From Octopus sinensis (taxonomy: Eukaryota): 64,000 bases of DNA. The position numbers were made by a program, and so were the translations under genes. Positions 2,040 through 61,729 of this stretch are shown here, in pieces. The stretch covers positions 39,122,001-39,186,000 of the forward strand of contig NC_043002.1 in the NCBI RefSeq assembly GCF_006345805.1. Reading direction: 5' to 3'. The notes beneath the pieces are model-generated. The model saw only the letters and a list, made by a program, of their open reading frames with translations, ran no database searches and was not told the origin of the DNA. Within the stretch, counting starts at the first letter, position 1. Each line of letters starts with the position of its first letter.

Positions 2040-2312
2040 TCTTTTATTCTGTTACTTGTTTCAGTCATATATATATATATATATATATATATTCTTTTAT
2101 TCTGTTACTTACTTGTTCAGTCATTTGACTGCGACCATGCTGCAGCACTGCCTTTACTTGAATGAATCCACCCCAGGACTTATTCTTTGTAAGCCTAGTG
2201 CTTATTTTATCGGTCTTTTTTCCGAACAGCTAAGTTACGGGGATGTAAACACACCAACATCAGTTGTCATGCGATGGTGGCTCTTTATATATAATATATA
2301 TATATATATATC

Positions 2313-2343
<31 letters not shown>

Positions 2344-2599
2344 CATATATTGTGTGCGTGTGAAACCCTTCTGTCCGGCATTCGCCTGATAGATCGGTAT
2401 ATATATATATATATTCTTTTATTCTGTTACTTGTTTCAGTCATTTGACTGCGACCATGCTGCAGCACTGCCTTTACTTGAATGAATCACCCAGGACTTAT
2501 TCTTTGTAAGCCTAGTGCTTATTTTATCGGTCTTTTTTCCGAACAGCTAAGTTACGGGGATGTAAAACACCAACATCAGTTGTCATGCGATGGTGGCTT

Positions 2600-2663
<64 letters not shown>

Positions 2664-2917
2664 TGTGTGTGTGTGTGAAACCCTTCTGTCCGGCATCGCC
2701 TTGATAGATCGGTATATATATATAATAATTCTTTTATTCTGTTACTTGTTTCAGTCATTTGACTGCGACCATGCTGCAGCACTGCCTTTACTTGAATGAA
2801 TCCACCCCAGGACTTATTCTTTGTAAGCCTAGTGCTTATTTTATCGGTCTTTTTTCCGAACAGCTAAGTTACGGGGATGTAAACACACCAACATCAGTTG
2901 TCATTCGATGGTGGCTT

Positions 2918-2958
<41 letters not shown>

Positions 2959-3505
2959 TGTGTGTGTGTGTGAAACCCTTCTGTCCGGCATTCGCCTTGA
3001 TAGATCGGTATATATATATATATATTCTTTTATTCTGTTACTTGTTTCAGTCATTTGACTGCGACCATGCTGCAGCACTGCCTTTACTTGAATGAATCCA
3101 CCCCAGGACTTATTCTTTGTAGCTAGTGCTTATTTTATCGGTCTTTTTTCCGAACAGACTAAGTTACGGGGATGTAAACACACCAACATCAGTTGTCATT
3201 CGATGGTGGCTTCTTAATATATTATATATATATATTATATATATACATATATGTGTGTGTGTGTGAAACCCTTGTCCGGCATTCGCCTTGATAGATCGGT
3301 ATAATATATATATATTCTTTTATTCTGTTACTTGTTTCAGTCATTTGACTGCGACCATGCTGCAGCACTGCCTTTACTTGAATGAATCCACCCCAGGACT
3401 TATTCTTTGTAAGCCTAGTGCTTATTTTATCGGTCTTTTTTCCGAACAGCTAAGTTACGGGGATGTAAACACACCAACATCAGTTGTCATGCGATGGTGG
3501 CTTCT
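2040..3505 (-). repeat. Tandem array of five ~300-bp units, inverted relative to 1691-2011
   Basis: Unit = SINE 3' half + (TA)n(TG)n + GAAACCCTTCTGTCCGGCATTCGCCTTGATAGATCGGTA. Units start near 2093, 2414, 2729, 3024 and 3315; the last runs on into the SINE head (to 3658). Confidence 0.9.
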
Positions 3506-3843
3506 TTCAGTTTCCGTCTACCAAATCCAATCACATGGCTTTGGTCGGCCCGAGACTATAGTAGAAGACATTTGCGCAAGGTGCTACACAGTGGGACTGA
3601 AGCCGGAGGCATGTGGTTAGGAACCAAGCTTCTTACCACACGGCCACGCCTGCGCCTATGGAATTTTGGGTGGGAGGACTTATATGCTAACATCTTTGTT
3701 CAACAGAAATACGATATTTTCTTTCTTCGTTTCATGAAATTTTAGCCAAAACGCAAATATGTATTAATTATTAATAGGGCATAAATCAAAAGATTAAACG
3801 CATTGTATCTAGGTATGAACGATTAAACACGTGTGCGTGTGTG

Positions 3844-50192: not shown

Positions 50193-50219
50193 CGAAACAA
50201 TAGCGAAATATCAACGTAC

Positions 50220-50318
50220 CTTGAGAACTTGCAATGGGTTGGGACCACCTCCTTGTAGCCTGAAGCCCCATGGTGCTCCGCCGTCAAGGGTGACGGTTAA
50301 AATCCCAGTACTGATCAT
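50220..50318 (-). CDS. Coding exon for the N-terminal part of a PDZ domain (synaptopodin-2/Shroom/PDLIM-type protein)
   Basis: Minus strand reads [33 protein letters not shown], then a phase-0 donor AAG|[23 protein letters not shown] is the carboxylate-binding-loop signature at the N-terminus of SYNPO2/Shroom/PDLIM PDZ domains. The frame stays open upstream to a TGA at 50426-50424. Not in the ORF track. Confidence 0.88.
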
Positions 50319-51665
50319 GATCCTGTCAAGTTCCAAAAATCTAGTAGCCAAAGAGTACTTGGATTCTCTATCTTCGAATAGATTGAACTGTTCCGATAAA
50401 TCCCTCTTTTCCTCTCGGCGCTGTCAAGTTATCAAAACTATAATTGCTTCCTGGGGAACAAAATATGGTTTTAATCTAAACTCAATTCGCCTGTTTCCTT
50501 TGCAAATATTTATTGTTAATATTATTGTAAATGCAACTAATTAGTCATGCTAAATTGCAAGAAATTTATTGATTAATTATTTGCTAATTAATTACATATT
50601 AAAATTTTCTAGGAAGTTTCTTCTGTCTTGTTATTTTTTTTTTCAATGCACCCCCCCAAATGGAACAAATTGGAGAAACTTTGTTAATCGAATAACAAAG
50701 TGTGCTATATATATATTTAGGGGGTTATTTTGTTGTTCACAGTCGCCTTTTTTTCCGTTTTTTGGTATTTGTTATTTCTGTTTTTGAGTTGTTTTTCTTT
50801 ACTTTTGTTACTAGATTTTTGGGGTGGGGATCGCGAAAAAATTGATATTAAAAAAAAATTTATCAGCTGAGGCCGGCTAATGGTGGTAAGAGTATGGCGT
50901 CGGCGGCTTGAAAGAGATCTTGTTCAAGAAGAAGAAGAAATATTCTAGGGGGTGGCAGTGTTGACTACCTTCCACGCAAAGTAACGTCATTCCATCTTGA
51001 TGTTGGGTAGCAGGAATGGATTTTCTGTGGCTGCTGTGCTTTCTCACTATCTGCTATGCTACCTACTCTGGGCTTTTTGCTTCTCTACAGGTAACAGAAA
51101 CCTCGGTTCAGCACTGTAGAGTGGGGTGGTGTTGGAGGGTAACGGCGTGTTAGTGCTGACTGCGGTGTTGGTAGTTGTGGGTGTTTGGTAGTGCCGATAA
51201 GGATGGCGGTGGTGAGGGTAGAGTGTACTGCAAGCGATGGTGGCGGTAGTGGCGGTGGTGGCTGAAGGCAGGGTGTAGTGCAAGTGCTGGTATTGCTGTC
51301 GATTGAGGGTGCTGGCGGCGGTGGTGGTAGCAGAGAATGCTTAAGCAGAAGAAATCGTCAGCCAACTGCTAATAGAACTTTTTACTCCCTTTTGGAAGAT
51401 AGGGTAGGGTGGGTGAATGTGTGAAGCAGTGTTAGTAAAGAACGGTGATAAAGAAATAAAAGTTTTTTTTTTTTTTATGATGATAAGGTTGAAGACACTA
51501 AGTTCGAAGTAAGGTGGAGTCCTACAGGGAGAGACGTGGAGACGGCAGAGACAGCAGCAATACTAGCAGCAACGACAGCAACAACAGCCACAACAGCGTC
51601 AGCAGCAGCAGCGAGAGTAACTGTTATAAAATGGTAGTTCCACAGACGGAAAACACCAACCGGCT
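50319..51665 (-). other. Probable long 5' UTR portion of the PDZ-gene exon
   Basis: Strong minus-strand acceptor TTTTTCTTCATATTTCTTTTACAG|AGCCGG at 51666/51665. The transposon-free, locally GC-richer sequence with GCT/CCA runs leads to the ATG at 50318. A weaker acceptor TTGACAG| lies at 50421. Confidence 0.45.
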
Positions 51666-58457: not shown

Positions 58458-59893
<1,436 letters not shown>

Positions 59894-59974
59894 AAGTAAC
59901 AACAAAAGAATGACACCTTGATAGCAGAAAGAGGATTATTTATATATGTTATGATTTAGAACAAACAGTAAAAG

Positions 59975-60048
59975 GTTGTCATTATAGTACTCGGAGTTTC
60001 GAATGTCGAAACGAAGGCCTTACATTCTCATCGGCTATTAATGGCAAC
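59975..60048 (-). ncRNA. Type I hammerhead-like motif (U4C core variant)
   Basis: GUUGCCAUUAAUAG-CCGAUGA-GAAUGU..ACAUUC-GAAA-CUCCGA-GUA^CUAUAAUGACAAC. Stem I is ~13 positions with one bulge and one mismatch; stem II is 6 bp. Confidence 0.65.
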
Positions 60049-60214
60049 AGATGCTATAAAAATTAACGTCGAATAAAAGAGAAGTTACTCTAATAGGTAG
60101 AAAAAAAAGAAAAAGATTAAAAAAATACACGCAACCATATTCACACAATACATAGACATAAACCTCCTGCGTTCATAACCTCTACATACGTACACACTCA
60201 CACAAACATATATC

Positions 60215-60530
60215 TCTCGTGGAAACGGCATCCAACTAAAGTACAAATATATGGGAAACTACCACCTGTATCATCTCTTGTGCAAGGTAGAAGAGTCCAG
60301 TTTGGTGGGCATTGTTGTAGAGCTGAAAACGAGGTAATTTCTACTCTTCTCCTCTGGAAGCCATCTGCTCGCGATACCAGAGGGCACACACTCTCCTACC
60401 CTAATGTAATCTTCAAGGATACAGGCATCCAGCAACAGGACCTCCGTAATGCTATGATGGACCGTGAAGTCTGGCGTAACATAGTAAATTCCATTGTCTC
60501 GACCACGGTCGAACAATGATGATGGTGATA
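60215..60530 (+). mobile_element. RTE-clade LINE 3' end
   Basis: IYGKLPPVSSLVQGRRVQFGGHCCRAENEVISTLLLWKP..DTGIQQQDLRNAMMDREVWR..*, followed by a (TGA)n tail. Confidence 0.85.
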
Positions 60531-60724
60531 TATATATATATTTGAGTAGAAAAATGAAATATCTTTTTATGGATAATTCGTTTAACCGATACCTGGGTAG
60601 CAAATTCACATCAGAAATAATACGGTTGAAGTTACGTGCCTAGGGCAGAGACTACGTGTTTTCGTGTGGAAATTTGTGCGTATTTTTATAAAATTTATGA
60701 ATAAATGAAAGAATGACAAATTAA

Positions 60725-60835
60725 CAAATTTCCTTTATTTTCGACATATGTTTCGAAGGCTGCATATTCCTAATTGTGAAGGAATAAGGAGTACATTATG
60801 CCGCTTTCTCATCAGGAAAAACAAGGAATTTATGT
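60725..60835 (-). ncRNA. Type I hammerhead ribozyme with canonical core, inside a (TA)n-flanked element (~60541-60890)
   Basis: Minus strand: UUCCUUGUUUUUC-CUGAUGA-GAAAGCGGCAUA...UAUGCAGCCUUC-GAAA-CAUAU-GUC^GAAAAUAAAGGAA. Stem I, extended stem II, palindromic stem III (ACAUAUGU) and a GUC triplet are all present. Predicted cleavage is between 60743 and 60742. Confidence 0.8.
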
Positions 60836-60902
60836 CAACATCAAGATTCACAAAAACTTTTAGATGACTGCTCTCACGGAGCGCATAGCGATATATATAT
60901 AT

Positions 60903-60974
<72 letters not shown>

Positions 60975-61729
60975 AGAAGTATTGAGGGTGATATATATAT
61001 ATATATATATATTATAACACAACCCACACACAATCTCACAGAATCACCACCAGACGTTAAAATACGAAAGATAGCTTAGGCAGCACATACGAACCACAAA
61101 CACCGGCGAACAAGAGAACTCGCGTTACACATATCGTGCCCCGATAAAATAAACAGATGCAGTACTCAAAAGAAACGTATGTAACAATGAAACAAACTTT
61201 ACAACAACGTAAAAGAAAAGAAGAAATTCTTTCTTTTTACCCTGCCAAAGCATAATTATAAATACATGCGCACGTGAACACACGGACGCACACATGCATG
61301 CAGACACACACACATATACATGCACACGCACATATATCTATATATACAAACACTCATGCATCTCGAGAGCCCACATGTGCATCTGGTAATGCAGTCGTCA
61401 CTGACATGAAACTTGAAAACACAATGTTACTGCTGATTATGATGATGATGATAATGATGATGATAACGGAGTTGACGATGATAATGATGATGATGATGAC
61501 GTCAACAACGATGACTACGACGACGACGAAATGGCGGGAAGAGGAGCAGGAAGAGAAGTCGAGGAGGAGGAGAAGGAGGATCACTATGACTACGATGATG
61601 ATGATGATGATGATGACGACGACAACGATGACGACGATGATGATGATGATGATGATTGATGGTTGTAGTTGTGGTGATATTGGTGGTGGTGGTGGTAGGT
61701 AGGTAGGGTGAGGTTCCATACTTTGGCAC

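Follow-up and report, generated by a model that had tools for sequence, protein, structure and literature searches.

The Hydra clade of Penelope-like elements has been defined, in the available text of PMC8557442, by the motifs DKT, RWK, CxxC and CxH together with a CxCx5C linker, by (TA)n targets and by canonical hammerheads; one of the Hydra families listed there by Craig et al. 2021, Hydra-1_Obim, comes from Octopus bimaculoides. Penelope hammerheads have been reported to act as dimers and with low activity (accessible parts of PMC4209133 and of the review PMC6765202), and those tested as single motifs gave no cleavage according to the same portion of PMC4209133. In the case of an Anolis element, the hammerhead is described as needing the element's protein and as not being required for insertion in vitro (PMC11167929, available sections).

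The locus described here belongs to a 64,000-nucleotide stretch of the Octopus sinensis genome (hereafter the window) and carries two hammerheads, A and B, which are real motifs of a known kind and incidental neighbours. They are very probably the pseudo-LTR ribozymes of separate 5'-truncated Penelope-like copies that likely belong to Hydra, that were likely inserted independently at the same TA-rich spot, that are predicted to act as homodimers only and that are likely near-silent passengers. In common with the metazoan Penelope-like hammerheads of PMC4209133, as far as its available text goes, they are of type I, have a G10.1-C11.1 pair and a palindromic 15.2-16.2 region, occur mostly as lone motifs in truncated elements with predicted dimer action, and are also found as inverted pairs a few hundred bases apart. 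They differ from that set in their longer stem I and stem II extensions and in having no unpaired base after A9; moreover, one family here has a U4C core, whereas the core variant given in the accessible part of PMC4209133 is U3-A8.

Hammerhead motifs of the window

The two motifs and their parts are as follows.

60725..60835, minus strand: type I hammerhead A, with core CUGAUGA at 60815-60809 and C3 at 60815
60808-60755, minus strand: stem II domain of hammerhead A, 54 nt
60754-60752, minus strand: GAA of hammerhead A (GAAA present)
60751-60744, minus strand: palindromic stem III of hammerhead A, ACAUAUGU, a perfect 8-nt palindrome
60743/60742, minus strand: predicted cleavage site of hammerhead A, GUC with C17 at 60743
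59975..60048, minus strand: type I hammerhead B, with core CCGAUGA (U4C) at 60034-60028 and C3 at 60034
60027-60001, minus strand: stem II domain of hammerhead B, 27 nt
60000-59998, minus strand: GAA of hammerhead B
59997-59989, minus strand: palindromic stem III of hammerhead B, ACUCCGAGU
59988, minus strand: predicted cleavage site of hammerhead B, after A17 (GUA)

A type I descriptor run over the 64-kb window returned two matches, A and B only, against a mean of 0.01 and a maximum of 1 over 100 block-wise dinucleotide shuffles. The same two window matches were obtained with a looser descriptor, for which shuffled neighbouring DNA gave 0.125 matches per 100 kb, and the neighbouring 120 kb held two more descriptor matches. 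An Rfam scan of the window at the gathering threshold gave no match. Motif A has all the features of the type I core (C3-U4-G5-A6-N7-G8-A9, G12-A13-A14, A15.1-U16.1, H17 and an open stem I), and motif B has all of them except U4, which is replaced by C4. In stem II of A, three pairs are followed by an A-C mismatch, a position at which 3 of 29 distinct copies have G-C; as a monomer, stem III has 2 bp only.

These data partly bear out what the first-pass annotation had proposed. For 60725-60835, which it had read as a hammerhead with a complete core, a GUC and a palindromic stem III, descriptor and coordinates agree, and the cut that it placed at 60743/60742 falls as claimed, with C17 at 60743. 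The second minus-strand motif, at 60048-59975, is likewise matched by the descriptor, with its U4C core, and the claimed spacing of about 750 bp in the same orientation corresponds to predicted cut sites 755 nt apart, both on the minus strand. What did not stand is the view of B as a partner of A: the motifs come from separate truncated Penelope-like copies, with a LINE fragment between them.

Repeats carrying the motifs and their probable order of insertion

Repeat searches were run against the window's own genome (2.72 Gb) and resolved the region into the following segments.

60541..60893, minus strand: family A, a young Penelope-like retrotransposon, represented by its 5'-truncated 3' end (pseudo-LTR region)
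60214..60527, plus strand: LINE 3' end, in opposite orientation, between the Penelope fragments
59894..60213, minus strand: family B, a different and older Penelope-like retrotransposon, of which the 3' end is present after 5' truncation
59783..59893, no strand: (TA)n and (TAT)n microsatellite at the 3' end of family B
60528..60540, no strand: short (TA)n tract from the LINE 3' end to the family A 3' end, a likely insertion target
60891..61016, no strand: (AT)n microsatellite at the 5' truncation point of family A

Positions 60528-60893 recur in the genome at 92-99% identity and positions 59894-60213 (family B) at 81-87%. A 25-mer of motif A has 800 exact genome matches, against none for the reversed control, and an 18-mer of the motif B core has 97. 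For the LINE piece, 39 other copies were scored at 95-96% among 2323 first-look candidates, and longer copies run on into a LINE C-terminal ORF; by its motifs, this LINE is probably RTE-like. The window copy of family A has a 10-bp deletion just 3' of stem I that occurs in none of the other fetched copies, 40 of which are intact at this point. Microsatellites border all three repeats.

We infer three independent insertions of different age, B being the oldest and A the youngest, because the window motif A equals the family majority at 121 of 121 columns, whereas motif B departs from its own at 10 of 93, none of these being an invariant core base. Judged from divergence, B would have been inserted first, the LINE next and A last. 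A recurring A+B cassette was considered and rejected, since family B was seen at none of 29 further A loci, nor family A at any of 29 further B loci. A more sensitive search brought out a single case, at L057, in which a diverged and partly inverted relative of A lies 1.5 kb from a copy of B; this older family A relative (L057:2973-3176) has 82% identity and an inversion inside stem II.

The proximity of A and B is ordinary, because an unrelated hammerhead in the same orientation occurs beside 4 of 58 other loci. In all, an unrelated hammerhead was present within the 1.5-kb flanks of 7 of these 58 loci (about eight of which are overlapping or duplicated), in one case only 561 nt away. Further unrelated type I hammerhead-like motifs were noticed in the flanks of L004, L028, L033, L037, L045, L055, L066, L070, L072 and L088; several of these have a long, AT-rich stem II and some form inverted pairs.

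Two other features of the window were recorded. Broken plus-strand open frames at 58521-59558 resemble a Tc1/mariner-type transposase remnant, and a tandem array of ca. 4 units of roughly 296 bp occupies 2076-3507.

Coding elements behind the two families

Two family A loci contain a GIY-YIG-type ORF ca. 520 nt upstream of the truncation point and on the ribozyme strand. When 10 of 41 family A endonuclease matches were fetched, by endonuclease alone, 8 of the 10 loci proved to have hammerhead A on the same strand, 540-620 nt farther downstream. Reverse transcriptase (RT), GIY-YIG endonuclease and hammerhead follow each other in that order in L064, L065 and L070, and L070 has two tandem full family A units 3.45 kb apart. 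In L064, direct repeats of the element's 3' end stand on either side of the ORF, one copy directly preceding it; such a direct repeat ahead of the ORF is seen in both L064 and L065, and many inverted pairs occur in the family. For family B, 10 of 43 endonuclease matches were fetched: hammerhead B lies downstream on the same strand in 5 of these 10, an RT piece lies upstream in 7, and RT, GIY-YIG and hammerhead are ordered on one strand in 3. Here, the pseudo-LTR-type arrangement is represented by inverted copies only.

RT followed by GIY-YIG in a single ORF was found for A in L064, L065, L069 and L070 and for B in L072-L074 and L076-L079. All the copies of this ORF that were seen have frameshifts or stops, and the window copies have no ORF. 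Pfam matches on the ORFs were weak and below the curated cut-offs (RVT_1, E 1.2e-4; GIY-YIG, E 0.015). The RTs of A and B share 38% identity over 179 aa, and no significant DNA similarity was detected between the two elements. Judged by these ORFs, the families of motif A and motif B are EN+ Penelope-like elements.

In the family A ORF of L064 (L064:7900-8960), a long Asn/Ser/Ile-rich stretch occupies the place where the cysteine linker is expected. A relative, P0001, bears the public-database label myb-like protein and is probably a mis-named retrotransposon piece. An RT found beside a family A copy at L022:2038-2720 was set aside as that of a different Penelope family, as no match to it was found among the 120 relatives listed for the A RT.

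Probable affiliation with the Hydra clade

Both families resemble the Hydra clade, as characterized in the accessible sections of PMC8557442, in having RT then GIY-YIG in one ORF, (TA)n targets, CxxC and, in A, CxH around conserved E and N residues, and, close to the 3' end, a type I hammerhead whose stem III is short and palindromic, to which are added DKT and RW in A and CxCx5C in B. Family A displays SDKT and RWL (L064), CxxC and CxH; it has no CxCx5C linker, an Asn-rich stretch standing instead, and measures ca. 3.7 kb rather than less than 3 kb. In family B, the CxCx5C linker was found in L038, L071 and L073, and CxxC in L073. Of the 120 relatives listed for the family A RT in the database, 68 have at least 660 residues, and DK[T/S] occurs in 67 of these 68, CxCx5-6C in 63 and DKG in none. 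The 3' ends of family A are followed by TATATATA or TATACATA in 18 of 23 cases (some loci overlap), and those of family B adjoin (TTA)n or (TA)n in most aligned copies. Family B is likely a member of the Hydra clade, and family A appears Hydra-like rather than a full member because the cysteine linker is missing. The Naiad clade, first suggested by the endonuclease, was rejected on the grounds that the endonuclease is C-terminal, not N-terminal, and that a hammerhead is present.

Further comparison with the parts of PMC8557442 available to us indicates that stem III of B is letter-identical to that of Hydra-1_aJap and Hydra-2_aJap and that, by eye, 42 positions match between Hydra-1_Obim and family B in a 61-residue RT stretch. 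The hammerhead given there for Hydra-1_Obim differs from both A and B, and stem II is much longer here (54 nt in A, 27 nt in the window copy of B) than in the Hydra clade. Finally, family B has C4, in contrast to U4 in all 26 rows of the Hydra table and to the core string cuganga stated in that source.

The U4C core and its occurrence

C4 is found in 30 of 37 distinct family B copies, which leads to rejecting U4C as a decay of the window B copy: it is the majority state. T4 occurs in 5 and A5 in 9 of the copies, a pattern that is the one expected from decay of the C4-G5 CpG. Genome-wide, the 18-nt context of the B core gave 97 exact matches with C4 (one N7 state) versus 43 with U4 (two N7 states). 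A third, unrelated hammerhead family present in the flanks gave 6,031 exact matches with C4, 2,642 with U4 and 204 with G5A, and judging from these counts its C4 and U4 sublineages both appear to have been amplified. This family (L015:308, L089:3668, L092:7240 and L105-L108:1502) corresponds to a short element that ends in (TA)n and has a minimal stem III.

The same substitution has been reported for a viroid, in which the U4C variant was much slower in vitro and sufficient in vivo (cited in Perreault et al. 2011, PMC3088659, available text); in family B, most copies of a retrotransposon family carry it. In the partial texts reached, our literature search for U4C returned this viroid variant only, and Lunse et al. 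2017 may already cover U4C in Penelope elements. That Penelope-like lineages have been amplified here with a U4C core, family B from a C4 master and the third family with both C4 and U4, is a tentative proposal that we regard as somewhat doubtful.

Within each family, stem pairs are mostly kept, with almost no compensatory covariation: the stem columns show one A-C/G-C switch and few double changes, the A copies being too alike and B decaying neutrally. At non-CpG sites, variability is 0.014 in core versus 0.031 in other columns for A, and 0.046 versus 0.074 for B. Hammerhead conservation within families A and B reflects, as far as these alignments indicate, descent rather than demonstrable selection, because there is little covariation and variability at core columns is just slightly below that of the others.

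Predicted dimer formation and alternative explanations

For neither motif is the hammerhead the unconstrained minimum-energy fold, and its predicted share among monomers is 0.28% for A and 0.10% for B, in a model that, here and for the energies below, ignores tertiary contacts. Predicted stem III duplex energies are -7.0 kcal/mol for A-A, -7.8 for B-B and +0.9 for A-B, and double-hammerhead homodimers are predicted to lie 6.2 kcal/mol below two free monomers for A and B alike. In an A-B heterodimer, the swapped stem I cannot form and cis A-B pairing has a predicted probability below 1e-8, which upholds the doubt already expressed by the first-pass annotation about hetero-dimer activation. Each palindromic stem III is predicted to favour the homodimer, with cutting likely to take place only with a copy of its own kind; these energies agree with the reports of dimer action (available parts of PMC4209133 and PMC6765202). 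No second family A or B hammerhead was found in the window, in the 100 kb to its right or in the 20 kb to its left. Within an active tandem element, pairing of stems III would join two identical hammerheads, which would then cut the precursor RNA, perhaps with the aid of the element's protein as reported for the Anolis element (PMC11167929, accessible text), and reverse transcription from the 3' end into a (TA)n nick, if it stopped early, would leave tails such as those of A and B.

That motif A instead works as an efficient monomeric ribozyme, by a tertiary contact between the stem II extension and a bulged stem I, is unlikely. Its complete core and GUC site, together with a constrained fold predicted to lie only 2.8 kcal/mol above the free minimum, are consistent with such activity, and most invertebrate retrozymes, according to the available part of PMC7229834, cleave efficiently as monomers with a stem III of 2 bp and a tetraloop. 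However, the perfect 8-nt palindrome is typical of dimer-type Penelope hammerheads and the single motifs mentioned above showed no cleavage (PMC4209133, same portion), stem II of A has the A-C mismatch, and the Anolis hammerhead needed the element's protein (PMC11167929, as above). Another view would hold the short copies to be non-autonomous retrozymes, protein-free and copied via circular RNA. They do share with metazoan non-LTR retrozymes a type I hammerhead in a 300-400-nt animal-genome repeat (PMC7229834 and bioRxiv 10.64898/2026.07.22.740005, both in their available text), most of the best-matching copies are short with many in inverted pairs, and retrozymes reportedly derive from Penelope pseudo-LTRs (same preprint, accessible part). 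Yet, unlike those retrozymes as described there, the present families are without tandem short units and consist of ragged 3' ends left by coding elements: short units arranged head to tail were not seen, the window copies are single, and the 5' ends are ragged and run on into an endonuclease and RT ORF, which largely refutes this view for the window copies. The tandems that were seen are either full coding units or a dead 1.94-kb satellite in which GAAA is lost, and a retrozyme origin is highly improbable. The satellite, the sole tandem array found to carry a family B fragment and present in L099 and L100 (G000:C14:33277000-33286999; C9000:55000-64999) as a 1.94-kb tandem array with units 97-98% alike and a B fragment, was also rejected as an active family B element on account of its dead core.

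Recruitment by the host was weighed in relation to the neighbouring PDZ-domain gene, whose first coding exon lies in the window.

50220..51449, minus strand: first coding exon (ATG 50318; coding 50318-50220) and long 5' UTR, the latter reaching at least 51449

A contig from a probable RNA run splices from this gene to an exon ca. 101 kb to the left, in which Pfam gives a PDZ match (E 4.5e-05), and both motifs are on the strand of the gene as had been claimed, its minus-strand position being given by the coding exon and the splice. The gene has a 5' UTR of more than 1.1 kb and an intron of ca. 101 kb after the first coding exon. The motifs might lie in a 5' intron of a distal-promoter isoform, where they would cut nascent RNA and lower output: both are on the gene strand ca. 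10 kb upstream of the ATG, the core of motif A is complete, an acceptor-like splice site occurs near 51664 (minus strand), and contig depth continues to ca. 51770, beyond which it drops, with short pieces of depth 2-5 scattered to 55256 in two runs. On the other hand, the deepest contig, of depth 724 and with a spliced loose end, covers 50215-51036 and the longest covers 50215-51449, both from runs presumed to be RNA and of a kind that cannot show a transcription start; RNA contigs end ca. 8-9 kb short of the motifs, and the low-depth pieces may be DNA. Motif A equals its young family's majority and motif B has drifted like its siblings, so that there is no conservation specific to this locus, no in-cis homodimer partner is nearby, and in a 1-kb context the predicted probability of the A15.1-U16.1 pair is 0.013 for A and 0.0008 for B. 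A minor upstream start of the PDZ gene is possible, with the motifs possibly included in its pre-mRNA; co-option of the ribozymes, for its part, is extremely improbable. The favoured reading is that of tails of two separate Penelope-like copies.

Significance

The importance of A and B at the level of this locus is little. The locus shows that a neat co-oriented pair of ribozymes near a gene can arise from independent insertions at one microsatellite-rich spot. Families A and B add octopus examples with a long stem II to the Hydra clade, one of them without the cysteine linker. If the amplification of U4C lineages is true, retrotransposition would select a hammerhead-shaped RNA and yet tolerate a slowed core, a tolerance that is expected if cleavage is assisted by dimer formation or by protein. 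The U4C families would then offer natural paired alleles for asking what the Penelope ribozyme does.
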